Positions 6,865 through 64,000 of a DNA stretch of 64,000 bases are shown in pieces. The translations under genes were made by a program, and so were the position numbers. The number at the start of each line of letters is the position of its first letter. Within the stretch, counting starts at the first letter, position 1. The DNA is taken from the NCBI GenBank assembly GCA_030248215.1, contig JASANG010003494.1, positions 186,001-250,000 on the forward strand, in the 5' to 3' direction. The notes beneath the pieces are model-generated. The model ran no database searches. It was not told the origin of the DNA and worked only from the letters and a program-made list of their open reading frames with translations. This DNA is from Enoplolaimus lenunculus (taxonomy: Eukaryota).

Positions 6865-6958
6865 ATTCAACGTATTATAATACGTACATAAGGTTCCGTG
6901 CTAGTATATTAGAATATAAATAGGACAGTTTTTCCCGGTTTAAGATGTCGTTGGTTAG

Positions 6959-7901
6959 TGTAAGCATGTAAGACATGCTTGTCCGTTATGTGGACAATGC
7001 ACATGCAGTATAGTGCAGCGCACTGTATGAATGCTTGCTGGCAGCATACGGTCGACACATATAGTCGTCGAAAAACAGTTGGAGAGGAGGGCTGCGTGGC
7101 CCAGTGGTAGAGTGTTCGCTTAAGGATCCGTAGGCTCTTTTACAGCTGCTGAGTAGAAATGTCTCAAGTCCCGATTCCTACCAAGACTGACATAGGGGCT
7201 ACTCCGTGGACGCAATGGCAAATTGCCGAGCTATGAACACGGTATCCAGTCGAACATAGGGTGGACGGTCAAGGGACGACCTTATTAAAGGTTAGGGCAT
7301 GTAAGCATGTGAGACAATGAAATTCACATTGTGTTGTATGCTTGCTGAAACAGCATACTGACAACACATATAGTCGACGAAAACTGCAGCTGTAGAGGCG
7401 GGCTGCGTGGCGCAGTGGCAGAGTGTTCGCTTACGGATCCGTAGACTGAGAGTTCGAGCCCCACTCCGGAAGCCGCTTTTCCAGCTGCTTGGTAGAAATG
7501 TCTGATGTCCCTCGCCTCCTACCTAGACTGACATGAGAGCTACACCGTCAGCGCAATGGTAAACTGCCGCGCTATGAACACGGTATCCAGTCGAAAATAG
7601 AATGGACGGTAAAGGGACGACCTCGTTGAAAATAAGGGCATGTAAGCATGTGAGACATGCTTGTCCGTTATGTGCACATGCAATATAGTGCAGTGCACTG
7701 TATATATGCTTGCTAACAGCACGCGATCGACACATAGTCGACGAAAAACAGTTGGAAAGGCGGGCTGCGTGGCCCAGTGATAGAGTATTCGCTTAAGGAT
7801 CCGTAGGCTGAGAGTTCAATCCCCGCAGTGGATGTGGATTCCCCTTTTTCAAGCTGCTTAATTAAAAAGGTCGGAAGTCCCGGTTCCAGCCTAGACTAAC
7901 A
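6959..7901 (+). mobile_element. Miniature non-autonomous LTR retroelement (TRIM), LTR-I-LTR-I-LTR array with tRNA-like sequence in the LTRs
   Basis: Three TG..CA repeats (6959-7192, 7300-7533, 7641-7901) and two 107-bp internal segments with a PBS-like start and purine-rich end. Perfect 5-bp TSD GTTAG at 6954-6958 and 7902-7906. Confidence 0.9.
7401..7480 (+). pseudogene. tRNA-like Pol III unit in LTR2 (related copies at 7763-7849, and at 7090 with box B deleted)
   Basis: Box A TGGCGCAGTGG 7408-7418, box B GTTCGAGCC 7452-7460, TTTT 7477-7480. Confidence 0.75.
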
Positions 7902-10900
7902 GTTAGTCTGTAATTTCGTCATTGTGTCACTTACGTATTTTTAAAACATAATTTTCAAATTCAGAATCAGCAATTTTAGTCGAAAAGGTTATGTCATGAA
8001 TACACAACGCACATTGTTTAAAGAATTGTATCTAAATGTATGCTTTGCTCTGTCATACCAATGACATCGCACGAATCCTGAATGCGCTTCTAGCAGGTAA
8101 TTAAAATTTTCATGAAACGACGGACAACATTCCGTCAAACGGTTGGTTTTACAAAAAATGAAAAAGATTCCCGAATTTGGAAAACAACCACACAAACCGA
8201 TCTGTAGCTAAACAAAGAAATTCGCGGAAAAACATTTAACCTAGCTAAGTAAATATCGTTTCTAAAACATTTTGTGAACAATTAAATGCATATCAAAATA
8301 TAACCAGCACAAAACGATCATTACTTACACTTGTACGTTCGAAATAATAAATTTTCCAGCAAGTGCTTAACTTCCCAAGCCAGAGTCTGTCTAGGGAACT
8401 AGTTGAAAAGATCTGATTCATACGAGTTCAAAACAATCATTTTTGAAACTAGCATACTGGGCTTCAATTTTAATGTATGATACACTATATCTCAAAAACA
8501 GTGCAGATTTTATGATTGTTATTAACACTGGAAAAAGTAAAGTGTTTTTGACAGTGTCCAATTGCTCCTTTTTTCGATTTCAGCGAACACTGATATGCAG
8601 GTCTTATCAAGAACGCGGCATTTACCCTATTTCGTTTCGGAACCGAAGTTGGTTGTGCTGGAAACGCTGCAAAAATGAAAATCCGATAGTTTGGGGTTGC
8701 CATCTGTTCAGTAGGATCAAAGGGCAGGCTTAAGGGTAAACGCCGGAAGTTTGCCTCAAGGTCCGACTCTTCCGAAATATCGACCTTCGGCTCTGCGTAC
8801 GGTCGAATTTTTGCAGGTTTCGTAAATTTTAATAATAGATTTTTTGTACTTTCAAAAAAGTAGTATCAGCGAGTAGTGTTGCAGCGTTGGAATAGTTTTG
8901 AGCGGTATACAACAATATGATTTGCAAATTATGGTTGAAATACGCATCATGTCCAACTCTTACACGCTTCGGCAAATTTTAAATACCGTTTTATCTCCTT
9001 ACTGTACCATCATGATAGGCTTGATAGGCTTTAATATTATCAAAACAAAAACGTAAATAATTCAACGGTGTTAATACGTTTTATGCATGATTAGTACACA
9101 ACAGCAGTCATGTTGGTGATTGGTCTGCTAACATTGAATGCAGTCAAGACTGAGTCTCAAAATTCAGCACTTTTTTCGCACATATTTGCTCTACACATGT
9201 GCCAATTTTGAGTTTAACAACTACAATTGTTAGTTAATAGTTTAGAAACCCATTACTAAACTGAAGGTAGTTGCACACTTTGAGAATATGGTGGGCCCTT
9301 ATACATTTTTTACGCTTTCCAAATGTAGCAAAATATTATATTTATATTTGATATTTGTTTTGGCCATCTTGCGTGCTGTAGTTACTCGCATAACAGGGGT
9401 ACTGAGAGGGTCACCATTTTGAGTCAGCCGGTAAGCGGATAGTCCATAAACCGCAAGGAGTCCACAAAAATGTCAATTTTATCCCTTATTATAGTGCATA
9501 AATGACTAGGATCTAATAAAGTTGAGTTCGAAACTTTAAACCATGAGTACTTAAGTTTTGAAAGTACATTCCTAAGTATAACGTAGCATATCGTTCAAAC
9601 TTTATATACTATACAAATAAACGTTCAGTTCAACGGATAGTTAAAATACCGGATATATATCAGTATTAACGAAGTGTGGCAGATGGCAGGTTGGAAATAA
9701 ACAACAGTACGTAACCAAATAACGGGTGGTACTCTCTGAAGCGGTCAAATAATGTCAGTCTTCCCCTCTTATTCGAGTCACTACAGTAAATCAATGAAAT
9801 GATGTTGTCTATGGTTGCAAAAAGCAATGTTTCAAAATCGCACAAAAATTCATGCGGGAAGAAATACTGGAGGAAACTCTTACACATAGCAAACGCAGCG
9901 ACGTTATCAAATCCTGCGATGACAAAAAACTCATAACCCCTCAGAGGTGGTATTTAAATATAATTGCCTGCTAATCGCCGGTTTCCTTCCATCATTACTT
10001 AAAGCCATGTAGGGGCGGAACGCTTTTCTGTGTGACTGCAATAGTGTAAGCTAAACCTTTAGACTAATTTTTTGCTTGGCTTAGGCTTAGGCTTAGGCTT
10101 AGGCTTAGGCTTAGTAATAAACTCATTCTTACGCTTAGGCTAGGCTTACGCTTAGGAATAAACTCATTCTTATGCTTAGGAATAGACTCATTCTTACGCT
10201 TAGGCTTAGGAATAAACTCATTCTTACGCTTAGGCTTTAGGCTTAGACTTATAGGCTTAGGCTTAGGCTTAAGAGTATGCTTATAATACTGTTCCGCCCC
10301 TATTCTTTACGTTGGCCAATACTTCTAAAAGTCTAACAAGCATGCAAGCTAACACTTTATACAAAAAGCTTGAATAATAGGACGTACTTTATTCAACACA
10401 AACATTTGAAACCTCTATTAAATGAGACACAACATTTTTACAGAAACAATTTATTAGCAATAATTAAAAGTAATCATTTTCCGTTTACTTCTCTGATTTT
10501 CCTCTGGTTTTGAGAAACAAAAAATGTCAAATCAGTTGTGATTGACCAATCATCATAGACCGGCCATAGTTATATGCTTTTTCCCCTGTTTCTGATAATT
10601 AGCAACTTCCAATCGTTTTCTAATTTAGTTTTCAATAAAGGCACAGTTTGGTCGAGCTAAAATACTGCAGGTCATAGCGGTTTATTGTTCAAGCCGGTAA
10701 ATTATAAATGGTTTTGCCAAAAATACCATGCCTGATTGCAGAAAAAATATTAATATTAAATAACTGACAGTTTGAATATTAAACATTCGTACATTATTTG
10801 AGAAGTAATTATTTCTACAGGAAACAATATGTAAAATACGCTTTTATCTTTTTAATCATGGGTTAAACAACAATCAGGGTACAGGAAAATATTATAACCT

Positions 10901-17691: not shown

Positions 17692-18290
17692 CAACACATT
17701 TTCGGCTTAGTTTTGAAACCAAATATTACATCTTTAAACCAAAAAAAAATTCTGGATCTGATAATTTTGTAGGTTCCGTTTTACGATTGCAAAATATTTA
17801 ATTTTGACAAAATTTGAACATATTTTCGGTTTAGTTTTGAAACCAAATATTATATCTTTAAACCAAAAAAATTCTGGATCTGATAATATTGTAGGTTCCG
17901 TTTTACGATTGCAAAATATTTAATTTTGACAAAATTTGAACATATTTTCGGTTTAGTTTTGAAACCAAATATTATATCTTTAAACCAAAAAAATTCTGGA
18001 TCTGATAATTTTGTAGGTTCCGTCTTACGATTGCAAAATATTTAATTTTGACAAAATTTCAACATATTTTCGGCTTATTTTTGAAACCAAATATTACATC
18101 TTTAAACCAAAAAAAATTCTGGACCTGATAATTTTGTAGGTTCCGTCTTACGATTGCAAAATATTTAATTTTGACAAAATTTTCAACATATTTTCGGCTT
18201 AGTTTTGAAACCAGATACATCCATAAACCAAAAATTTCTGGATCTGATAATTTTCTAGGTTCTGTTTTACGGTGCAAAATATTCAATTTT
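17692..18290. repeat. Tandem repeat, 122-124 bp x about 5
   Basis: Unit starts recur at about 17692, 17816, 17938, 18060 and 18184. Confidence 0.95.
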
Positions 18291-23366: not shown

Positions 23367-26267
23367 GTTTTAGTAATTATGGAAATAACTGTGAATACGA
23401 AGAATACTGTTTACACTATGACTTTCTGGTATCAAGAGTGGATAATGCAAACCTCGACAAAACATGTAACTATACTTATTTTACGTAGAAAAGAATGTAC
23501 CCGGCACGCGTTGCGTTTTACTGATAGTAAACACAATGAAAACATGAACTGTTTATATGGTTAAACTTACGAATATTTCTTTCACTTCTCACAACACTGT
23601 TGCCTGTTGGCCCATGTTACTTTAAGAGGTGTCCAGGTTTCTGGTGGATCTATAAAAGAGTAGGTTCAGATTCTAGATTTGCATGCTTCTGCTTAGGCTT
23701 AGGCTTATGCGTAGGAACGCATTTTTGCAACGCTTAGGCTTAGGAATACGCTTAATCTACTGTTACGCCCCTTAAAGTATGACATTGGCCACACTGCTAA
23801 TAGCTTCAAAAGAACAATTTGCGTCATAAAACTACCAGCACAAGACTGGCGAGATGAAACGTGCAATCCGTGAGAATCCGCAATCGAATCAATCCAAGCA
23901 TTCATGACTTTACAGACATCACAAATTCATTTCAAAGTATCCTTTTGAAAACTCAATATTCATGTGCGAATTTTGACCAATATTTTCAATTTGCTCATTA
24001 AATCGTCTTTATTCATCTCGCCATGCGGTCTTCGCCTCTCAAAGGCACGGGCCGAACAAGCGACCCACTGCCTTTAATTATTGTCTGGTTGAGAGGTTTC
24101 ATAAACGTTTTTGCGTTTACACCGCACTTGACTAGGATAATAGACGACAAATTGTAGGGATAACGTTAGCCCTCTTGCTGGGAATGGAAATGATATATTA
24201 CATATGTGAAATTAAGTCAAAATAACGCAAGGCAAGAAGTTTATTTGGATCGAACGCACAAAGAAATATATTAACATATATACTCGCAATGTAATAATAC
24301 GTTAGCAGAATCTTATATGGTGATTTGCTTAAATTTTCATGGATTTGAGCCACTTGGAATTTCCTGGGAGTCATCCTTTAAATTTTTTTTGATTTCGTAC
24401 AAAATATGGGAATTTTATGGACAATCTTAACGCAGTACACTCAGTTTTACGGGGGAATAGTCGATACACAGGTAAATTGCGATGAATTGATCAATCAACT
24501 CAGAAAAAGAATAAGTCATTTTTTGGTCAGTTCTGACTTTACTAACTCACTCCGAGCGGATTTAATTGTAGGTTAGTTGATTAATTAACTCAGAATGAGC
24601 TCAATCAAATCAGAGTTTTGAGTTCTTAAAGGCCTAATTCAGACCTCTGAGTAGATTCAACTCATTTTGAGTTAAAATCAACTCACTGAAATTTACCGTG
24701 TGACAGAAATTTCGGCGTTAGTTAGATTGTTTATGAGAAGTACTTTGAGGGGAAGATTGTAAATAAAATCGAATTACTCGAGTAAGTCATGCTAAGCCGG
24801 TTTCGAAAACATTTTTCAAAATCTGTTGACGTGCCGAACTGTGGAAACTTCCTGAGTAAAAAAAGATTTAGATTTATAGGTTGGGTCCAAAACACTTAAA
24901 AGTTGTCTTTTAAATTTCGAACCTGTTAAACCAATTATAATGGCACATTTTAGCGGTTTATATGCGGTTCACTGGAGGATTGAAGGATGGAAATTCAGGT
25001 AGGGGCGTTCTAAGAGGACTTAAAACGATTTGTATTAAGATTTAGCACTAAAATTGCATTTGACTTCAAGCCGCTTCATCGGGTTGGTTTTGGTTTGTAT
25101 TTCGCTTATCGCGTGACTCCCAGTGAGACATCTTTAGATCCGTCATTGATGCTTTTTAAAACGACGGATTGAGCAGGACGGTTTAGCTGTTGAAAGTTAT
25201 AAGAGTACGATATCCGTATTTTTAGTTTTCGTTAAACAGAGCGTTGTTATGTTGTCAGACACATTATAAGGCCGGGAGCGTAGTCAGAGAGTTTCAGGAT
25301 TTGCTCAGGTTTCCTCAAAAATTTTGACTCCGGCTAGAATATTTTCAACCTTGCTTGCGAAGTCATCGAAAACCATTGTGCACCCATCCTGAGAAATTTT
25401 TAGTCTCCTGGCAAGGTGAACTGGCTACGGGCTTGATTCGGGCAACATAACGTGTCCTAATTCTGGTACTGCGTTAACTTAGAATTGCTTAGCCTTATCG
25501 GTTAGCAAACTTGGGAGACACTCTCTAGCACGCAAGCATCACTGAAATGCTGTAAATTTTTTGTTATATACCTGCTATTTTCGTTAACCATTTGAGAGGC
25601 CGTCCAACTTGCAATGTAGCCGTAACGTAGCGCCCTAGAGCAAAGGCGGCGAATCAAAACGCGATTAACTTAGAAGCGTTTTCCCAGTCGTTTTGCCAAT
25701 TTTTTCGTCAATTTCAGCTCACAGAAATTTATTCTTGTTATCGAAAAAGCCCAAATCTTCCACTGCCCTAAACAAACAAATACTTCCGCAACAACATACT
25801 TTTCGCTTCCAATCTCTTTCAACTCGACGAATAAAATTTCAACAGACAGCAGGTGATAAGCGGATACTACTTGACGAATTAGTTACAAACGATTTGAACT
25901 GGAATTGAAATTGGTTTTGAATTTTAATATCGGTTCGTTTCAATGAAACGTTCAACGTTGAGTTCAGTTCTTGACTTTTCGGAAACATGATAATTTTGAA
26001 ATTGTCGCATGGTTTAATTTTACGTTTTAATTGAGATTTGTGTGACTTTTGTGCTGGTGGCTTATAGATACAGGATTTGGGTTAAGGTTCCGTTGCGGAA
26101 ATAAAAAAAATGTTTTTAGGCATAAAAGTGGTAATTATTTTGATGACATCTATATGATTAAAGCTGGAATACCCCACATACGTATTTTGGACACGTGTCC
26201 AGTTTACTTTGTAATACAGTTTCATTGCACAAAGACGTAATTTTTTCTATAGTTAAAAAATTGCATA

Positions 26268-26488
26268 CACTGCAAAAAATGATGAGTCAAATTTACTCTC
26301 TCCGAAGTAGGCTTTTCGTGACAACACAAACTGAGTCGAATTCGACTCTGCCAGAGTCAAATTCGACTCACTGAACGAACTCGGGTGAGTCGAATTTGAC
26401 CCTGGTTGATTCGAATTTGGCTCAGTTTGTGTACTCCGGACAAGCCTACTTCGGAGAGAGTCAATTTGACTGACCATTTATTGCAGTG
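26268..26488. mobile_element. CMC-like MITE with GAGTC/GACTC repeats
   Basis: TA|CACTGCAA..TTGCAGTG|TA. A related copy lies at about 56200-56370. Confidence 0.78.
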
Positions 26489-27048
26489 TACAGATTATTA
26501 TGCATTCGCTAAACACTTTTGCACATTGCGCAAAACAGGACTGGTAATAAGATTGGATGATAGTGGAAACTTTGAAAACTGTTCATGCGTTTGTTTTATT
26601 TTCAAGAAAAGTTGTGTTTGACTTTAGCTGGCGGTTTCAGATACACAATCTCTTTGAAATTGCGCTGTTGAAATATCCGAAAATTAGTCAAGTTTGAGGA
26701 GCAGTTTAAATATACGTAGGGCATGTCGTCTTGCTAGCTTTACTTTTATTTGGGTGTATTCCACACATCATTCAATGATTATGACAACTTGGCTTTATCG
26801 CTTGTACTAAATGTATATTTTACCTCGTACTGTCGATCCAAATAAACTTCTCGTTTTTTGTCTTGTCTTGTAATACCCGAAGTTACAGACCGAAGCCTGA
26901 TCTGACCTGTTGAGCTGTCTGACGATGCCAGTAATAAACACTTACTTACTTACTTACTTTGATTTTCGTACAGTTGTGTTTTCTGGAATCACTGATTGAC
27001 AACCATGAGACGACCAACGTTTAACATACAACATGAGTGATATCGGTA

Positions 27049-32861: not shown

Positions 32862-33474
32862 TTAATTGCAAAAATTATAAAATTGCACAAATTGCGAAAA
32901 TCATACGTATATAGAGGCCCATGGTAGGCTTAGATTCTTGATTACATTTTTTTGCTTAGGCTTAGGCTTAGGCTTAATAACACGTTTTTGTAACGCTTAT
33001 GCTTAATTGCAAAATTATAAAATTGCACAAATTGCGAAAATCATACGTATATAGAGGCCCATGGTAGGCTTAGATTCTTGATTGCATTTTTTTGCTTTGG
33101 CTTAGGCTTAGGCTTAATAACACGTTTTTGTAACGCTTATGCTTAATTGCAAAATTATAAAATTGCACAAATTGCGAAAATCATACGTATATAGAGGCCC
33201 ATGGTAGGCTTAGATTCTTGATTACATTTTTTTGCTTAGGCTTAGACTTAGGCTTAATAACACGTTTTTGTAACGCTTATGCTTAATTGCAAAATTATAA
33301 AATTGCACAAATTGCGAAAATCATACGTATATAGGCGCATAGTAGGTTTAGATTCTTGATTACATTTTTTGCTTAGGCTTAGGCTTATGTTTAATAACAC
33401 CTTTTTGTAACGTTTATGCTTAGGCTTAGGAATACGCTTAATCTACAGTTACGTCCCTTAAAGTAACATTGGCC
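32862..33474. repeat. Tandem repeat, 140 bp x 4, derived from a MITE junction
   Basis: TTAATTGCAAAATTATAAAATTGCAC recurs at about 32862, 33003, 33143 and 33283. Each unit holds flank plus part of a TTAGGC MITE. Confidence 0.93.
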
Positions 33475-38742: not shown

Positions 38743-41700
38743 TGTAGGTGGCTGTGCCACACTTAAACCTATTTCAAACTAAAAACTAAAACTAAAATAA
38801 AACCCTATATCTAAACCACACCTTAAGGGAGTTCCTGGCTCCACCTAGTCTCTCTTAGAACTTAAGTTAGGCTTAGGCGTTGCTACAAGGCGTAGAAATT
38901 GGTAAATCTATGCTATGGCGGCTGTGTCCGCAATGTAAACTTACCTGGGGCCCTGCGTGGCCATAGAATGGATTGATTAATGGTGCATATCGAGATGGCT
39001 ATAATTGCGTTTAACGACATAGCTAGGCTATGTCAGCACCAAAAATGGTGCTTAATATTGTGTGTCTCCGGCATGGTTGTTGTTGTTGTTGTAGTACCGG
39101 TTGGGTGGCTCTCGACCTCGACCGCATTGCGGACACCCAGTGGTGTGTGTCGGCAAAAATGCAAATGAGGTCGAGATGCCGATATGGGTAGCCAGGACCG
39201 GAATCAGTCTTGGTTGAGTTTTTCTACAAATCGGTTGGCGTTTTATTTGGTTGGCGGCGAGCGTTTATTTTTACATTGCTTCTTGAATTTTGGTTTGCGT
39301 TTGGAAATTTTACTAAGTAAGGTCGAACGGATTTAAGTTTAAGTTTGTCACGGTGGCTTAACATGTGAAGGAAAGCAGGCATCACGGATTTAATTGGTGT
39401 TGCGCAGGGCGCAGAAATTACCCAGTATTGGATACTGGTGTCATGTGCTAAAGGAACTTGGGATATTAAAGGAAACCTGGGGAAAAGTAGTCTAGTAAAT
39501 CTAACGGGGTTAGATCAAAAAAAAAGAAAAAACAAAAAAAAAAAAAAAAAAAAAAACAAAAAAAAAAAACAAAACAAACCCCCCACCAAGACGCAAGGAA
39601 AAGGGCAATGGCCCAGAGGGCGCGCGTTAGTCCGAAGGGATCAACGGGCGGATATGTACGACCGGCTGCGGGGTCGGTGGTAAGTAGAATCGGACCGAGG
39701 CAGGCGAATCCGGTGTACAGTGCATCGGCTGTGCGATCACAGACAGCGCCTGGGTACCGAGGATCCGGAGCAGTAACGCAGAGGGTGGTTATTAGTCCAC
39801 CAGCTGGGTCGGCAAGGGTACGGCCACCAGTCCGGCAAACGTCGGGCGAGCGGTACCCTGTACGAGTTGGCGGTCATATGGGACAGTCGCAAGTGGCGCC
39901 GGCACGTGGTTATTACAATCAGCAAGTGGAGGACGTACGGCAGGCGATGCGAGAAAGTCGTCAAGTGGAACGACAGCAGCAGCAACAACGGGCGTCGCGA
40001 TCAGTGGCGCGCGATAATCAGTGGGTGACGCAGGAAGAATTGGACGCCTATTATGCGGACGTCCCTCGTGAACTGCGTCGAAAACGCTTTTGATGGATCG
40101 GTAATAGACGTTATGGTGATTATTAGTTCGGTAATGCTGCGGGGTGCTGGGGGTTGTACTGGTACGCCGGGTCGTTGGAATGGAATCTTGGGGAGTGACG
40201 TTATTTGGGCTGTTCTGGGGCTGTTAATGTGGTAATGGTTGTCGGGGGTAATGTTGAACGGGTGCTGGGGGTGCGCTGGTACGCGGTTTCGTTATTTGGG
40301 TTTTATTGGACGCATTGGCAACATTGTCGTGGGTCGTTAGTGGTTTGTTATCGTTATTCGGCGGAAAAGACAAAAACTTTAAAAATAAATAAAAAGCAAT
40401 ATAAAAGAAAGAAAATGATGAAAAATTGTTGTTGTTATTGTTGTTAAGTTTGTTATTGTGGATTTACGCTTTTTAGCGACGGCAAAAAAGGCAGTAAATA
40501 GGGCCATAAAATTTTGTTCGATGCCAGGGTCGGCATCTGTGCCGAAGGGGGGATGTAGGTGGCTGTGCCACACTTAAACCTATTTCAAACTAAAAACTAA
40601 AACTAAAATAAAACCCTATATCAAAACCACACCTTAAGGGAGTTCCTGGCTCCACCTAGTCTCTCTTAGAACTTAAGTTAGGCTTAGGCGTTGCTACAAG
40701 GCGTAGAAATTGGTAAATCGATGCTATGGCGGCTGTGTCCGCAATGTAAACTTACCTGGGGCCCTGCGTGGCCATAGAATGGATTGATTAATAGTTTATA
40801 TTGTGCTGGCCTAAATTGCGTTTAACGACATAGCTAGGCTATGTCAGCACCAAAAATGGTGCTTAATATTGTGTGTCTCCGGCATGGTTGTTGTTGTTGT
40901 TGTAGTACCGGTTGGGTGGCTCTCGACCTCGACCGCATTGCGGACACCCAGTTGTGTGTGTCGGCAAAAATGCAAATGAGGTCGAGATGCCGATATGGGT
41001 AGCCAGGACCGGAATCAGTCTTGGTTTAGTTTTTCTACAAATCGGTTGGCGTTTATTGGTTGGCGGTGAGCGTTTATTTTTACATTGCTTCTTGAATTTT
41101 GGCTTGCGTTTGGAAATTTTAATAAGTAAGGTCGAACGGATTTAAATTTAAGATTGTCACGGTGGCTTAACATGTGAAGGAAAGCAGGCATCACGGATTT
41201 AATCGGCGTTGCGCAGGGCGCAGAAATTACCCAGTATTGGATACTGGTGTCATGTGCTAAAGGAACTTGGGATATTAAAGGAAACCTGGGGAAAAGTAGT
41301 CTAGTAAATCTAACGGGGTTAGATTTATTATTCTACAACGGCTGGGCCAAATCTAACGGGGTTAGATTGGTCGGAAATTTGGTGTAACTCTAACGGGGTT
41401 AGAGTACACGGTTTAACGGGGTGTAATTCTAACGGGGTTAGAATTGCACGGATTCTGGAAAACGGCAAAAGTATTTGGTACGGTAAAGCCAGTGGCTGGA
41501 TTAAATCAGATTCAGACGTCGGCTTTAAGGATTCCGGCTCGGGTTACCAGTTAAATTACATAACCTGTGATTTGCTGGCCTTTAATTTGGGTATTTCGTG
41601 TCTTACGGTTCGGGTACCAGTAAATTACATAACCTGTGATTTGCTGGCCTTAATTTCGGTTGTTTTGTGTCCCACAGGTCGCGGGTACCAGTTAAATTAC

Positions 41701-48812: not shown

Positions 48813-50149
48813 GCTCTTATCCGAAACTGACTGATCGGGTTCGTAAGTTAAGCGGGACCATACAAGAGCCATTGACGAAAATTTTTTGGCTTCGGATGCG
48901 GTGAAGCTTGCACCCGCGGCTACAGATTACCGTTATCGATGCTTAAACCACTGGAAACCTATACAATTCCAAATTTCGGCTCATGTAAAGATCAGGGGCG
49001 GAACGTTTTTCTGTGGGACAGCAATAGAGTAAGCTTAAGTTTTAAAATATTTTTTTGCTTGGCTTAGGTTTAGGTTTAGCAATAATACTGTTCAGCCCCT
49101 GTTCTTTACATTGGCCAAAATTTCATATGTCCAACTGTGTCCACGCCCTATTCAAAACTGGTTGCACAGGTTTGTAACTTTCAACCCAGTACACAAAATT
49201 CACGAAAAAATTTACGCGTTTCCCAGTTCAAGTTGGAAATATTTTAGCCGCATAAATGCATTAATTGTACTTTTGAGTGCAACTTGCGTTGCCGACGGGT
49301 GATAGGTGCTAAATAGTCATTTATGATGCCAGGCTTATCGAACAATTTATTAAAATTTAACGCCGTTTAAGCCTCGAAATGTATCGCGGATTTTAAAACG
49401 ACAAATAAAACAGCAAATTTGTAATTATTAAATAATTTATTGTTATGTCGGCTTAAAAGTGTAAATTTTCGCTGATATACCAGTGTTATAATGTGTTATA
49501 TATATATATATGTATATATATTATATGTATATATGTATATATAAACATGAATAAAATGGACCATTGTGGTCTTTAAGAATGACCGATAGTAAGAGTGTAT
49601 ATTTTGAGGATTACAGAGGGACCACATACACTAGTAAATTCAATGGTTGAACGGGAAGGGAACGTAGGGACCTTCCATGACTGTGACGTAAAATTTAATA
49701 GGACTTAAAGATTCAAAAATAAAAGTTACGTTCAAACCAATTTTTTGCAATATTCTACCTGAAAATTATCACTGAAATTAGCTGGTTTATGAGTATGCTT
49801 ATAATACTGTTCCGCCCCGGGTCTTTACGTTGGCCATTACTTGTATATGTATTGCGTACTTTACTCCGTTAAAACAACATCAGGGTTAGACCTGGGCTTA
49901 GGTTCCAGCTTGTAAGTTAACTTTTTTCATATTGCGAGTGAAATGGTTTACGTACAACAGTGTTTATGTGAATAATTCTTGCTGGAAACGGTTATCAAAT
50001 TCAACAAATATGTACCTCCCTAGGGCTTTTAACTAAAAACTGCTACATAAGGTATACACAGCTTCAGAAAATTTGAATTACGTACAATTACAAACCAATT
50101 TTACGCACAACGTTCCTACGGAAAGTTGTTACAAAGTTTAGCATTTTTT

Positions 50150-50785
50150 TATTACGTATTTTCTCAATTTGAAGCTAATTTGGCAGATTTTTTGCGCAAT
50201 ATTTTCACAATTTCCGAAAAATTGGCAAGTTTATTATAAAATATTTTCCACAATTTCAGCAATTTTGGCAAATTTTATATTAAACATTTTCACAAATTTC
50301 GCAAAATTGGCAAATTTTTTGTTTTAATATTTTTTACAATTTCAGCTAATCTAGCAAGTTATTGCGTATGTATTTTTACAATTTAAGCAAATTTGACCAT
50401 TTATTTGTTAAATATTTACACAATTGTAGAAAATTTGTGGTAAACTTTAATAAATATTTTTACAATTTCGGCAAATTTGGCCAATTTATCGGTAATTATT
50501 TTCACAATTTCAGCAATTTTGGCAAATTGTTAATTAGATATTTTTATAATTTCAGGTTTTTGTTAACTATTTTCACAATTTCGGTTTTTTACTAACTATT
50601 TTCACAATTACAGCGAATTTGGCAATTTTTTTATTAAATATTTTCACAATTGCAGCGAATTTGGCAATTTTTTTTATTGAATATTTTCACAATTACAGCG
50701 AATTTGGCAATTTTTTTATTAAATATTTTCACAATTACAGCGAATTTGGCAATTCTTTTATTAAATATTTTCACAATTTCAGCAA
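50150..50785. repeat. 42-43 bp minisatellite abutting exon 4
   Basis: TTCACAAT recurs at 50601, 50643, 50686, 50728 and 50770, and degenerates upstream. Confidence 0.9.
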
Positions 50786-51001
50786 ACTGCACGAAAGATC
50801 TTTGCTACAATGGAGGCGAATGTATGTCAAACGCAGCCCCGCGGATCAAACGTGCCGCATGGCAATCCGACGACCCAGAAAACGTTGGAAATCCTCTAGA
50901 TCCAACTGGCACCAACGTAACCGAAAACCGCCCTGAACCTGGAAAAGGGACATCGTTATGCGCGTGTCCTAATGGGTTTCAAGGTGGCCGCTGTCAGTAT
51001 G
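50783..51001 (+). CDS. MEGF6: MEGF6-like exon 4, EGF1 with long inserted loop
   Basis: TTTCAG acceptor, GTAAGT donor. ANCTKDLCYNGGEC..(45 aa)..CACPNGFQGGRCQY. 219 bp, phase 1-1. Confidence 0.92.
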
Positions 51002-52542: not shown

Positions 52543-52776
52543 TGTCAGTCTAGGTAGGATCCGGGACATCAGACCTTTCAACTAAGCAGCTGGAAAAGCG
52601 GGCTACAGCGAATCGAACTCTTTGCCTATGGATCCTAAGCGAATACTCTACCACTGCGTCACGTAGCCCGCCTGTCCAACTGCATTTTTCATTGACTATA
52701 TGTGTCGACCGTACAACACAATGTGCATTGCATTTATTGCATATGCACCAGCACAAGCATATCTCACATGCTTACA
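52543..52776 (-). mobile_element. Solo LTR of the same tRNA-bearing TRIM
   Basis: Reverse-complement match to the 7-kb LTRs from end to end, TG..CA termini, perfect TSD ATTGT at 52538-52542 and 52777-52781. It interrupts a TTAGGC MITE. Confidence 0.9.
52600..52668 (-). pseudogene. tRNA-Pro(AGG)-like Pol III unit within solo LTR
   Basis: GGCTACG/TGTAGCC acceptor stem, C discriminator, box A TGACGCAGTGG, box B GTTCGATTC, TT-AGG loop, TTTT terminator 2 nt downstream. The anticodon stem does not pair, so it is not a functional tRNA. Confidence 0.75.
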
Positions 52777-56812: not shown

Positions 56813-57360
56813 GTATGTTTGTGATTGGTTGATTTAATTTCTCGCATTTTGTAATTGGTCAATGATACTTTGAAAAGCTCAAGCGCCGCAACTACAGGGG
56901 TTGTCGCGCCGATTACGGACGGCTTCACCCCTGTCAGAAAAAATTTTATACAAACATTTCCTCATTACGGAGCTGAGAAGTTTCCATTGAGCATATGCTT
57001 GTTGTTTAGAATAAATCTAAGATTAAGTCTAAGCCTAAGCCTACTGTGGAACTGACAGCAGAAATACGGGATACACATGAAAATAAAAATAGACCTGGTG
57101 TCGTTTTTTGCTAAATATATTCGAATTTACGGCCAATGTATAGAACAGGTTAGTTACAGTAGTATCATGCATATTCCTAAGCCTAAGCGTAAGAATGACC
57201 TTTACCTAAGCCTAAGCCTAACCGCCAGCTTAAGCATGAAATAGTCTAAAGCTTAAACTTACTTTATTGCAGTCCCGCAAAAAACGTTCCGCTCCTGTTC
57301 TTTACATGAGCCGAGTTCATGAAGAATGTTTCAAATTTGAGACATTTGTTATTCTTTTAG

Positions 57361-57483
57361 ATGTCGACGAATGTGCTGTTCACAACGGTGGCTGCGAGTA
57401 CAAATGTGTCAACAAAGCAGGAGGGTTCAGATGTGAATGCCCCCCTGGTAAGGTTCTTCATCCTGACGGCCGACAATGTTTTG
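57361..57483 (+). CDS. MEGF6: MEGF6-like exon 6, calcium-binding EGF
   Basis: TTTTAG/GTATGT. DVDECAVHNGGCEYKCVNKAGGFRCECPPGKVLHPDGRQCF. 123 bp. Confidence 0.95.
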
Positions 57484-57797: not shown

Positions 57798-59156
57798 CAC
57801 GATAATATCCTTTTGTAGGTGATGTCCAAAATGGTGCAGATACGTCTCGACTAAATTTCCTAAGAATATTGTTATATTTGAAGGTATACAGTACACGGTA
57901 CAATCGGTGGTCTGTATCCAGCTCCGGGAGAAAATCGACCTCCGGCTCAGCTTGAATTTGAGGTTCCGGCACAACCGACAGTGAATTTTTTCATATTTTC
58001 TAAAAATTATCATTCGCTCGATTAACTCTTGGCACAATTTTGAGGAATAAAATTGTATTGGTTTGGTAAAGTATGAACCTAAACTATATTTTTGATAACA
58101 CTTTAGAGATAGTTGTTATAGTTAGCAATTTGTTTCACTCGATCTCCGGTTGCGGCAAATTTTGTTAATCTTGCTCCGGTATTTTTCACATCTGGTTATA
58201 AAACGTTTTGCTTAAACACCTACTTGCTCGGCTAATTCATTATGGAGGCGTTTGCGATGACAGCGCTATTTGTTGTACATTTTAAGAATTCTTTCTGTTT
58301 AGTCTTAGGGCCAATGTTGCTTTAAGGAGCGTAACAGTAGATTAAGCGTATTCCTAAGCGTAAGCCTAAGCCTAAGCGTTGCAAAAATGTGTTCTTAAGC
58401 CTGAGCCTAAGCTTAAGCGTAAGCCTAAGCGTAAGCCTAAGCCTAAGCCTAAGCCTAAGCGTTGCAAAAATGTGTTCCTAAGCCTAAGCCTAAGCCTAAG
58501 CCTAAGCAAAAAATGTAATCTAGAATCTAAACCAACTCATTTTATGGACCCACCAGAAACCTGGACGCCCCTTAACGTAACATACGCCAGTCCTCGTCTT
58601 AGGCTTAGGTTCTTGTTTATAGCTTAGCCATTTTTAGTTATCAGCAGCTTTTTAAACCAGAAGCCTGCAGTTGTAACAAACTTGAAATATCATTTGAAGC
58701 ACTTTTAATTGCAAAATGCAAGTCAGTATAAGCTGCAACCGTTATCAGGGTACTATTCGCGTATCCAGAATTTTCTGTCTTGTAGGGGTATACAAAATGA
58801 CACATGATTGAAAAATGGTAGCGAGGGGACCTTACCATTTTTGACCAATGATTTTTAGACATAAATAAGCGGCGTATATGACCACGGCCGGCTGATAAGG
58901 GTTTTTGGCTTCGAAAAATTACAGGTCCATTTTTCGTTGATTTCAAAAAAATTATGTTAAAAGTTTGTCATATTTGCAAATTGTTTCTATTAGTTAAGCA
59001 AGTGCGGTACGCTGTGTTTTTTTTTGGTATCCCGACAATTCGTCACCCGACAACTTGTAATCCGACACTGCATCAACTTGACAATTTGTCGCCCATCGTT
59101 TACGCTCCGACTTAGGCTCAGAATTACGCTTAGTATTATGGTTAGATTTGTTTATG

Positions 59157-59358
59157 GACACTGGTGACCGACAAGCTGTCGGGCTTCAAATACTGTTGAC
59201 CGACAAGCTGTCGGGCGACAAATACTGTTGACCGACAAGCTGTCGGGCGACAAATACTGTTGACCGACAAGCTGTCGGGCGACAAATACTGTTGACCGAC
59301 AAGCTGTCGGGCGACAAATACTGTTGACCGACAAGCTGTCGGCCGACAAATTGTCGGC
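59157..59358. repeat. 32-bp tandem repeat x 6 with internal palindrome
   Basis: Unit AAATACTGTTGACCGACAAGCTGTCGGGCGAC. Confidence 0.95.
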
Positions 59359-60160
59359 AGATTCGTTTTTTTAATTTATGTTTTAGACGAAAATACATGC
59401 TCAATCAGCAATGGTGGATGTCATCACGTTTGCGAAGAAGAAGATGGTAAATTCACTCGTTGTCGGTGCAATTACGGATACAAGCTGGCACCGGATAAAC
59501 GAACCTGTTATGGTAAATTCCGGAATTATTGTGACTTCAACATATCGCAAAATATCCGCCCCCTCATTGAATAATTGCGTTAATAAGAAAACATTAACGG
59601 TTTAGGCATAGTCGTTGGCTTTCGGATTTGAAAATAATATAATGGCTAGGATTAGGTCTAGGTGTAGTGTTTGACTTTAGGCTATAAACTGTAATGTTGG
59701 AGATTTAACGTTATCCAATTAACATCAGTGGGGGAAGTTTTAGATGCAGTGCGCAGCGGATGAATTCTATCTACTATATTTTCGGGTTATATATGTAGTA
59801 CGCTTTTTTGAACCTGAATACTCAAAATAGCATTAGATGCTGTGACCTCGTAGAATTAAGCAGTTGATCAACGGACGTTCCTAGGATTTCAATTTAGTAG
59901 GATTATAAAAGAAATCGTGTAACCTCTAGAAGACAAGAAAGTTATTCTAGGTCCAGTTAAAAATTTGTTTTTTTTTGTCTCTCTTATGGTTTAGGGATCG
60001 GATATATGCCCTCATCCTGTTATTTTGCATACAACTTGCGGTGATTGAAACCCCGAAAATATATTAATATCGCAAAGAATTTAGAGCTTAGCTAAGTAAT
60101 TTTGTAAAATTTGTTGCTGTAATCACATTTTTATGTAATTATTTTTGTTTATGTTTTCAG

Positions 60161-61563: not shown

Positions 61564-61955
61564 GTACGTGACCACACTATCGGATCCAGAGCGGGGGCGC
61601 ATAAGCCCCCGTGAGAAATTTTTTTGGGATAAAATGGTAAGGTCGTTACCATACAATTTGTGCTTCCTCATAAAATTGGCACTGCATACAGTAAAAGTTG
61701 CGTTTCCTAACTTTTGACTGCTCGCCTCACCTGTCACAAATTTCTAGACCCACCGCTGCGTGCTCGTATCCGCTAAAGGGATGAGCAGAAAACACTATTC
61801 CCCATATGAAAAATTTTGGTTTCTCTGGAAAAGTTTCAGTTTGGTTAAAAATGGTAATATTGGGGCATTTTACAAATTTTCACTGTTGTGCGATTAAAAT
61901 TATGTTTGGCTTTTCGTTCGCTTCGTTCGCCATTTTCAAATTGTCACTATTTCAG

Positions 61956-62078
61956 ATATTGACGAATGTGCTTCGAGCAACGGCGGATGCGATCACGGAT
62001 GTGAGAATTTAGACGGAAGACATCGGTGTTACTGCCGCGCTGGGTATAGGCTTAAACCGGATGGCCTGGCTTGTCAAG
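61956..62078 (+). CDS. MEGF6: MEGF6-like exon 10, calcium-binding EGF
   Basis: [49 protein letters not shown]. 123 bp. Confidence 0.95.
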
Positions 62079-62495
62079 GTTCAGTTACATTTGATTTAAA
62101 ACAATGGAGTTTATTTTGTTAATATTATATCTTCATCTGTCATCAGTTAGTGATAGGTTTTCACACAGACGAACTAAATGTTGTAATAAAAAGTTGTACA
62201 CAGTTTTGTATTAACGAAAGTTACATGTGTTAACAGACTTTGATAACACATGATTGAGATGTTAAAAATGTTAACCACCTGATTGCACAATCAATCGGAA
62301 TCGGAATTTTAAAATTTTAATTTTAATCTTACTTGTTGTGATACGTAGTGGCCAGTAACCCGAACAATCTATGTTTATGCTCTGGTGGCTGATCCTCGAT
62401 TCTCTATTGGTAGACGCTACTTTTTGGTTTTCCAAAATTTAAATTTTTAAAATGCGGGTTCAGAAGACATTTAATTATTAATTTATAATATATAC

Positions 62496-62832: not shown

Positions 62833-62865
62833 TGTATATGTATCATATTCAACTTGTGCTTTCAG

Positions 62866-62988
62866 ATATCGATGAATGTATTGAAGGCGTTGCGTCATGT
62901 TCACACGAATGCATTAATACGCCTGGTTCATTTCGATGTGAATGTAAACCAGGATTCGTTATCCGATCGGACGCAACTGACTGTAAAG
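62866..62988 (+). CDS. MEGF6: MEGF6-like exon 11, calcium-binding EGF (gene continues past window)
   Basis: TTTCAG/GTATCA. DIDECIEGVASCSHECINTPGSFRCECKPGFVIRSDATDCK. 123 bp, no stop codon. Confidence 0.95.
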
Positions 62989-64000
62989 GTATCATTTTAG
63001 CCGGCGGGGGGCTGGGATATTGGACAAGGATGGATGCGTTCTATTTAAATTTTCGAACCGGAGTTTCGTGTGTTGCATGCTAATACCATGTCTATAACCC
63101 CCTGAACAATAATCATAGGTGGAACGGCGCCTGAAACCCTTTCTGGCTTGAAACCATTTCTGGCTACGTCCTTGTAAAAGGCGTGCGGTCAGTCGTCTGC
63201 CCTGAGACTCAGACCTGTCTGGGGTTTTATTAATACCGGCTTCCTAATCGTTGTTCAGCGTTTTTTAATATTAACAAATCTGATTAATTTTTGTAATGTT
63301 TTCATTTACAATCTACGGATAAGAATGGGTGTAGCTACAGGTTTCGGTTTGCAGGTGGTCATAGCAAACGTATAAGGTTTTCTGATTTGGCCCTGAACCA
63401 ATTGGTTAATTTTCTCGAAAGCGTTGAAGGTGGCCACGGACCACTAGGCTCCCTGCCGGGCCACGCCCTTGAACATAAGCTACTTTGTTTATCAATAAGG
63501 TCTCCTGCAGCCATTCAGGCACGTAGCCAAGGGTGGGCTATAGGGACCCAGCATTCCCTGCCACAATTTCACCCCCTTGAAACTTTTCAACGTTGCCTTG
63601 AGTCAGCGAATACTCTTGTATTCCCCTCATAAAATACTTTAACCCCAAACAAGGAGAGCTGGCTACTGGCTTCTGGCAATTAAGCATAAATTTTAAATTC
63701 AAATTTTAATTAACTATGCACCAGGGTCGCATCTGAGTTGAAAGGACAAGAACTGTAGTAGCAGATTACCTTACTTGCTCATATAATAGCCAAATGTTTG
63801 TGCCGCTTGGTATTTGATTTGAAAGATAGGCTAAAGAATACGTCTGGATTACCTTCTTGCAATGAATGAGACCAACGAAATTTGAGGCAAATGCCTCAAC
63901 TGCCGTTCTGCTGAGTTCACGACAATATTTAAAATGGAAAAACTTACAATTACAGGCTTTAACAGAGAAATTTTCAATTACTGGGTGTTTAATTGAAAAA

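Follow-up and report, generated by a model that had tools for sequence, protein, structure and literature searches.

Helenus elements (Kojima 2024, PMC10886601) are TRIMs that carry a tRNA-derived sequence in their LTRs, and tandem arrays as well as PBSs of the tRNA-Pro type have been reported for them; their Pol III transcription is unproven. In Fig. S2 of that paper, the Helenus PBSs often depart from the tRNA after ~8-13 nt, and Helenus-1_TeGr and Gypsy-13_CGi have the same TGGGGGCT PBS start, which is assigned there to tRNA-Pro. Kojima tested whether Helenus primes itself and, in the families treated there, found no LTR unit complementary to the PBS (PMC10886601). In bivalves, TRIM arrays are described that follow the pattern LTR(x)-internal(x-1) (PMC6934838), and 5-bp target-site duplications are known from Mag-lineage Gypsy elements (PMC3286476) as well as from Ajax and fungal Helenus (PMC10886601). 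Tf1 is named as a self-priming LTR element in PMC6934838, while PMC13570524, in its part considered here, merely cites Helenus.

In the window, by which we mean the whole 64,000-nt stretch of DNA analysed, we found a three-LTR tandem array (6959-7901) with two 107-bp internal regions between the LTRs and a fourth LTR that stands alone on the minus strand (Table 1). The locus is a true TRIM, a non-coding LTR retrotransposon whose full unit comprises 234 + 107 + 234 = 575 bp, below 1000 bp, with two TG...CA LTRs. All four LTRs start with TG and end with CA, both insertions are flanked by 5-bp target-site duplications (GTTAG at the array, ACAAT at the solo LTR), and a PBS and a purine tract are present at the ends of the internal regions. 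With its size, LTRs, PBS and PPT, its box A and box B, and a duplication of 5 bp within the 4-6 bp allowed, the element falls under the definition of Helenus (TRIMp3).

Table 1 Features of the TRIM array and the solo LTR (positions in the window).
Feature	Position	Strand	Remark
5' target-site duplication GTTAG of the array	6954..6958	+	identical 5-mer at 7902-7906
LTR1, 234 bp, TG...CA	6959..7192	+	cassette from 7090; T run at 7138
PBS 1, tRNA-Pro type, abuts LTR1	7193..7210	+	pattern compared with Fig. S2 of PMC10886601
Internal region 1, 107 bp, non-coding	7193..7299	+	
Purine-rich tract 1 (PPT-like), 2 nt upstream of LTR2	7287..7297	+	putative function, from position
LTR2, 234 bp	7300..7533	+	
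tRNA-like cassette of LTR2	7401..7480	+	box A 7408-7420, box B 7452-7460, long 3' end, T4 at 7477
PBS 2, decayed	7534..7551	+	two G-to-A changes relative to the TGGGGGC start
Internal region 2, 107 bp	7534..7640	+	
Purine-rich tract 2 (PPT-like)	7628..7638	+	from sequence
LTR3, 261 bp	7641..7901	+	cassette from 7763, box A 7770-7782, box B 7814-7822
3' target-site duplication GTTAG of the array	7902..7906	+	
Solo LTR, 234 bp	52543..52776	-	ACAAT duplication at 52781-52777 and 52542-52538
tRNA-like cassette of the solo LTR, 69 nt	52600..52668	-	box A 52661-52649, box B 52618-52610
Long closing helix of the solo LTR, ~20 bp, predicted	52586..52683	-	extends the acceptor stem, takes in the T run 52597-52594

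Because the LTR pairs are only 81-88% identical and the internal regions agree at 87 of 107 positions, both the array and the solo copy are old, and no further full copy of the TRIM was found within the 64-kb window. The three array LTRs share one pair of target duplications, yet they are 12-19% divergent, and LTR2 is missing ~37 nt close to its 5' end and carries a different cassette end. The LTR divergence and the peculiarities of LTR2 suggest that the array joined different subfamilies through recombination or template switching. The cassettes differ: that of LTR1 has lost box B and its 3' end, that of LTR3 has a rearranged 3' end with a T5 at 7845, and that of the solo LTR, which is inserted within a TTAGGC-rich repeat, has a paired acceptor stem and a T arm that is 2 nt short.

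Like Helenus / TRIMp3 (PMC10886601), the element is a TRIM of less than 1 kb with two LTRs, a PBS, a PPT, solo LTRs and tandem arrays; its box A/B unit in the LTR is not a working tRNA, and its PBS is of the tRNA-Pro type, as in Helenus-1_TeGr. In contrast, every animal Helenus row of Table S1 that holds a value has a 4-bp duplication, whereas the duplications here are 5 bp long (PMC10886601); therefore, we did not file the element in the described animal, Gypsy-mobilised Helenus lineages. Its box B reads AGTTC instead of GGTTC, and its cassette end is partly complementary to the PBS, a feature not reported for Helenus in the parts of PMC10886601 considered here. Two LTR motifs gave no match in the text of the supplement of that paper, in which line breaks can hide motifs. 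The plant TRIM Cassandra resembles the element in its LTR-borne Pol III promoter and terminator, LTR-internal-LTR tandem arrays, read-through transcripts, self-complementary LTR and PBS for a host tRNA, but differs from it in the 5S rRNA-derived unit, the tRNA-iMet-type PBS motif and the plant host (PMC7215508, PMC10886601). Ajax of nemerteans is likewise an animal TRIMp3 with 5-bp duplications, although its unit is 5S-derived and its PBS is of the tRNA-Leu type (PMC10886601). As best read, the locus represents a further Helenus-type family of animals, present in high copy number and with duplications of 5 bp, the length of which points to an independent origin or to an autonomous partner other than that of the 4-bp lineages.

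We examined the family outside the window by aligning public contigs on the solo LTR; they stem from three DNA runs on two samples of a single study, and these runs may include the source of the window itself. Contig depth is not copy number and favours reference-like copies, and all shares given below are therefore rough. In the three runs, 5207, 3474 and 2105 contigs were placed on the solo LTR. The match ended exactly at 52543 in 228, 221 and 162 of them and at 52776 in 143, 159 and 102, and the flanks beyond were unlike. Since many contigs stop at both LTR ends with unlike flanks, the family is present in high copy number and the LTR ends are correct. Single contigs in one run (X2) join an LTR end to an LTR start over very short internal regions, one of them of 28 nt with remnants of the PBS and the tract, indicating that smaller tandem derivatives exist. 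Motifs of the family occurred in no stretch of the metagenome contigs searched and in two stretches of viral contigs, where no tRNA was called.

Each LTR contains a cassette that starts with GGCT(A/G)CG and has a box A-like sequence (4/4 copies), a box B-like sequence (3/4, deleted in LTR1) and a run of four to five T (4/4). As judged from ARAGORN, Rfam and the T stem, the cassette is tRNA-like but is no tRNA. ARAGORN called no tRNA gene in the window. The Rfam tRNA model aligned end to end on exactly 52668-52600 at 14.6 bits (E 2.1) against a cut-off of 29 bits; for LTR3 it returned no tRNA row up to an E of 10, and none of the 15 Rfam rows for the whole window was a tRNA. In LTR2 and LTR3, three of the five T-stem pairs form and the two mismatches are shared; in the solo LTR the T stem lacks 2 nt, and in LTR1 it is deleted. 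We accordingly rejected a functional tRNA-Pro(AGG) gene, given the absence of ARAGORN calls, the T stem with 3/5 pairs or 2 nt too few, and the Rfam score below the cut-off. The AGG anticodon seen in the earlier note did not hold up either: the loop has 7 nt only in the solo copy, three of the four window copies being one base longer, and the flanking arm is unpaired as an anticodon stem. Instead, the middle of the cassette forms a short hairpin around GATC, which is not an AGG anticodon arm, and both loop states, with the solo length and with one base more, occur among the contigs. The family is a source of tRNA-like false calls.

The acceptor stem of the solo cassette has all seven pairs, with C at position 73. 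On its own, the 70-nt solo cassette folds no better than its shuffles (z = 0.02); together with its flanks, it forms the ~20-bp helix (z = -4.35), while the matching stretches of LTR2 and LTR3 reach z = -0.42 and -0.90. All four copies are predicted to have a shorter form of the closing helix. In the helix of LTR1, C-G is replaced by A-T; we considered this change as compensatory and rejected it, since it falls on the deletion joint and could be due to chance. We also rejected the T4 as a sign of a small-RNA function. An early TTTT had been taken to favour a small RNA product, but it does not discriminate, because Cassandra has Pol III terminators in its LTR and still yields read-through (PMC7215508).

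As the earlier note had it, the internal segments begin with TAGGGGCTACTCCG (7193) and TGAGAGCTACACCG (7534). Each lies directly 3' of the CA end of an LTR. A third PBS, in the one contig with the 28-nt internal region (run X2), reads TGGGGGC followed by C-A-C, so that the TGGGGGC start is seen directly; the PBS letters are known from three copies only. Positions 9-10 are AC in all three. The solo unit does end in TGTAGCC-C (52607-52600), after which come GC and four T, and from this end an 11-nt match to the PBS had been derived. The letters of this match are right; however, three of the 11 are an assumed CCA, the PBS is a two-copy consensus, and each real PBS matches at 9 of 11 positions. 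Seven of the eight templated letters match in a fixed register, with a naive P of 0.0004, but granting the five of them that also occur in the 3' end of tRNA-Pro (PMC10886601) leaves a P of ~0.06-0.16 for the extra match. Without the assumed CCA and register, none of eight LTR-PBS pairs beats dinucleotide shuffles (best 26/300).

The earlier note had cautioned that the match rests on one copy, and the contigs bear this out. Only roughly 1-3% of the covering depth (3.2%, 1.4% and 1.0% in the three runs) retains the solo letter at 52606, the base of pair 10. With another letter, as in a rough 96.8%, 98.6% and 99.0% of the depth, the match run ends at position 9 and the acceptor pair 6-67 is broken. 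In addition, 59-68% of the depth, again a rough share, departs from the solo sequence at 52603 (83, 68 and 57 contigs, compared with 60, 56 and 44 that have the other letter) and continues with a longer, LTR2-like end. The 11-nt match is therefore the property of a rare variant, and the same solo variant also perfects the hairpin of the cassette itself.

The two common cassette ends complement different parts of the PBS, the short end positions 8-9 (a TA pair) and the long end positions 11-14, as in LTR2, where 7467-7470 is complementary to positions 11-14 of PBS 1. This partial complementarity of both common ends argues for a shared origin of the PBS and the cassette end more than for chance. 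A copy with both features would match the PBS over 14 nt, and the few contigs that match the solo LTR up to 52606 and then diverge, as expected of such a copy, could be examples of it. Neither common end would template the AC at PBS positions 9-10. At its other end, the cassette shares letters with the PBS in the same sense: PBS positions 4-10 are identical to the 5' arm GGGCTAC (52669-52663).

Whether a host tRNA-Pro fits the PBS better than the cassette does had been proposed as one half of a refuting test. Over 18 nt and two PBS copies, the standard animal tRNA-Pro, which is a stand-in and not the host's own, matches as well as the solo cassette but not better (22/36 each). The two differ in where they match. 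At positions 9-11, the solo cassette has 5/6 and the standard tRNA-Pro 1/6 over the two copies, while at positions 12-18 the tRNA-Pro end of Fig. S2 (PMC10886601) has 8/14 and the solo cassette 4/14 (4/7 and 2/7 per copy). Within this latter part, the tRNA-Pro end of that figure matches positions 12-14 fully in both copies, whereas the solo cassette has 2/3 and fails at position 12 (PMC10886601). The duplexes predicted with the two PBS copies have energies of -23.2 and -7.2 kcal/mol for the standard tRNA-Pro and of -20.0 and -10.0 kcal/mol for the solo cassette.

From these observations, we consider that the element is probably a Helenus-type TRIM that uses a host primer of the tRNA-Pro type, with the cassette serving as an internal Pol III promoter. 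In the scheme that we infer, which involves Pol III transcription, an autonomous partner and a particular primer, Pol III would start near the first G of the cassette in the 5' LTR; some transcripts would pass the weak T4 and stop at the T4 of the 3' LTR, giving a genome-length RNA in which the cassette is the R region. This RNA would be packaged and copied by an autonomous LTR element that generates 5-bp duplications, with a host tRNA pairing with the PBS at positions 1-8 and 12-14 at least. The overlap between the cassette end and the PBS might then have arisen because both go back to a tRNA with one and the same acceptor end, GGCT...AGCC-C. A host primer is favoured because the PBS holds the tRNA register into the T stem (positions 12-14), because the solo letter at 52606 is rare and most of the depth leaves the solo sequence at 52603, and, together with the promoter role, because box A and box B are kept while the tRNA fold is not.

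Retroviruses copy their PBS anew from the primer, and an altered PBS returns to the primer sequence (PMC13191261). If the same holds here, the primer must template AC at positions 9-10 and CCG at positions 12-14, which neither common cassette end does. Some observations stand against a host tRNA-Pro as well. In both PBS copies, positions 9-10 are mismatched to the standard animal tRNA-Pro; without AC in the standard tRNA-Pro, either the host would have a tRNA-Pro that starts with GGCTAC, or the PBS would be only partly paired, as is seen in many Helenus and Gypsy rows of Fig. S2 (PMC10886601). In addition, cassette position 5 is A in ~83-85% of the depth, a share biased towards the reference, and the cassette start is then GGCTAC, identical to PBS positions 5-10. 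A search for a tRNA 3' end fitting the PBS (GGCTAC-type) gave one match in metagenome contigs, a poor sample of animals, which was not a tRNA, and none in viral contigs.

An unlikely alternative to the host-primer reading is that a host tRNA primes while the cassette acts in cis, its 3' strand exchanging its own 5' strand for the PBS ~60 nt downstream and so masking or presenting the PBS. The identity of PBS positions 4-10 to the cassette 5' arm would let the 3' strand pair with either, and selection on such a strand switch would maintain partial complementarity, some of which is present in both common cassette ends. However, the predicted folds of two real cassette-to-PBS stretches, both from decayed copies, do not contain pairing between the cassette 3' end and the PBS, and pairing within the local helix is much stronger (-39.5 kcal/mol for the solo LTR).

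The earlier note had left two options, a primer made by the element itself or a PBS and a cassette that both trace to the host's tRNA-Pro; the second fits, with a host primer of the tRNA-Pro type, and the first is weakened by the rarity of the matching end, the unpaired or short T arm and PBS positions 12-14. That a short Pol III RNA is stopped at the T4 of the LTR, trimmed, CCA-tailed and then primes the read-through RNA strikes us as quite improbable. We give equally little credence to the version in which one promoter yields both a tRNA-mimic primer, through the T4 stop, and the genome, through read-through, with the cassette end of a rare active subfamily matching the PBS in full. A T run in every copy leads one to expect short products, the solo acceptor stem is fully paired with C at 73, and at PBS positions 9-11 the solo cassette (2-3/3) fits better than the standard tRNA-Pro (0-1/3); the separate PBS parts matched by the two common ends (8-9 and 11-14) and the few contigs that diverge after 52606, as a copy with both features would, also agree with a self-supplied primer. 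Nevertheless, the PBS-matching end is a rare variant, the T arm needed by processing enzymes is unpaired or short in all copies, and the predicted long closing helix does not leave the discriminator free. Moreover, neither common cassette end templates the PBS, no LTR-PBS pair exceeds shuffles unless CCA is assumed, and no such case is found among the Helenus families published in PMC10886601. If a self-supplied primer were real, it would overturn the published view that the tRNA-like unit of the Helenus LTR has no priming role, and the retroelement would be independent of the host tRNA pool.

The idea that the primer comes from the LTR of the element itself is shared with Tf1-type self-priming. 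In that mode, it is the transcript's 5' end that pairs with the PBS, and a CCA is not required, whereas here the complement lies at the 3' end of the cassette and the PBS begins with TGG in tRNA register. With a start at the first G of the cassette, the 5' end of the transcript would have the sense of the PBS itself, and no stretch of the LTR is complementary to the PBS beyond the level of shuffles. The BEL element Cer7 of C. elegans is reportedly proposed to encode its own tRNA primer; it resembles a self-supplied primer in this respect but is said to be autonomous, with the tRNA-like gene outside the LTR. A literature search whose coverage lay largely outside subscription journals found no LTR-encoded tRNA primer and likewise no record of the Cer7 precedent.

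Hardly likely is a primer supplied in trans by another host Pol III RNA, such as the SINE or tRNA-like gene from which the cassette came, that preserved the initial 3' end as the LTR copies diverged in two directions: it would account for the difference from tRNA-Pro at PBS positions 9-10, for the tRNA register to at least position 14 and for the parts common to both cassette ends, and a SINE insertion has been proposed as the origin of such cassettes (Kojima, PMC10886601), but no such RNA was seen, no further related copy exists in the window, and this explanation collapses into the host-primer reading if the donor is the host's tRNA-Pro.

The window also contains a second, unrelated LTR-like element (38743-41300) with two ~296-bp repeats that start with TGTAGG (38743 and 40554) and are identical at 285 of 296 positions. 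A G-rich tract precedes the second repeat, the same internal start follows both repeats, as in a tandem form, and a putative PBS lies after a 7-nt spacer. A basic, low-complexity frame of 200 codons at 39491-40093 had no Pfam hit, and nine of the 11 long ORFs of the window were scanned, none of them with a hit.

The TTAGGC-rich repeat that harbours the solo LTR is interspersed at many sites between 10066 and 59140 and is MITE-like with GGCC-type ends. TTAGGC is the nematode telomere repeat; in the window, however, it is interspersed and is no marker of the clade, and the hexamer occurs 138 times, against 25 for TTAGGG. EGF-like exons of a long-intron gene lie on the plus strand at 50785-51001, 57360-57483, 59386-59512, 61955-62080 and 62865-62990 (the ends of the last two are approximate); they have AG acceptors and mark the host as an animal, and one carries an insert with a RIKR motif. 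A homologue search with this exon found none. Finally, a palindrome with 106-bp arms and several tandem arrays (periods 32, 122, 140 and 42) were observed at 26266-26490, 59128-59383, 17743-18238, 32871-33334 and 50149-50824.
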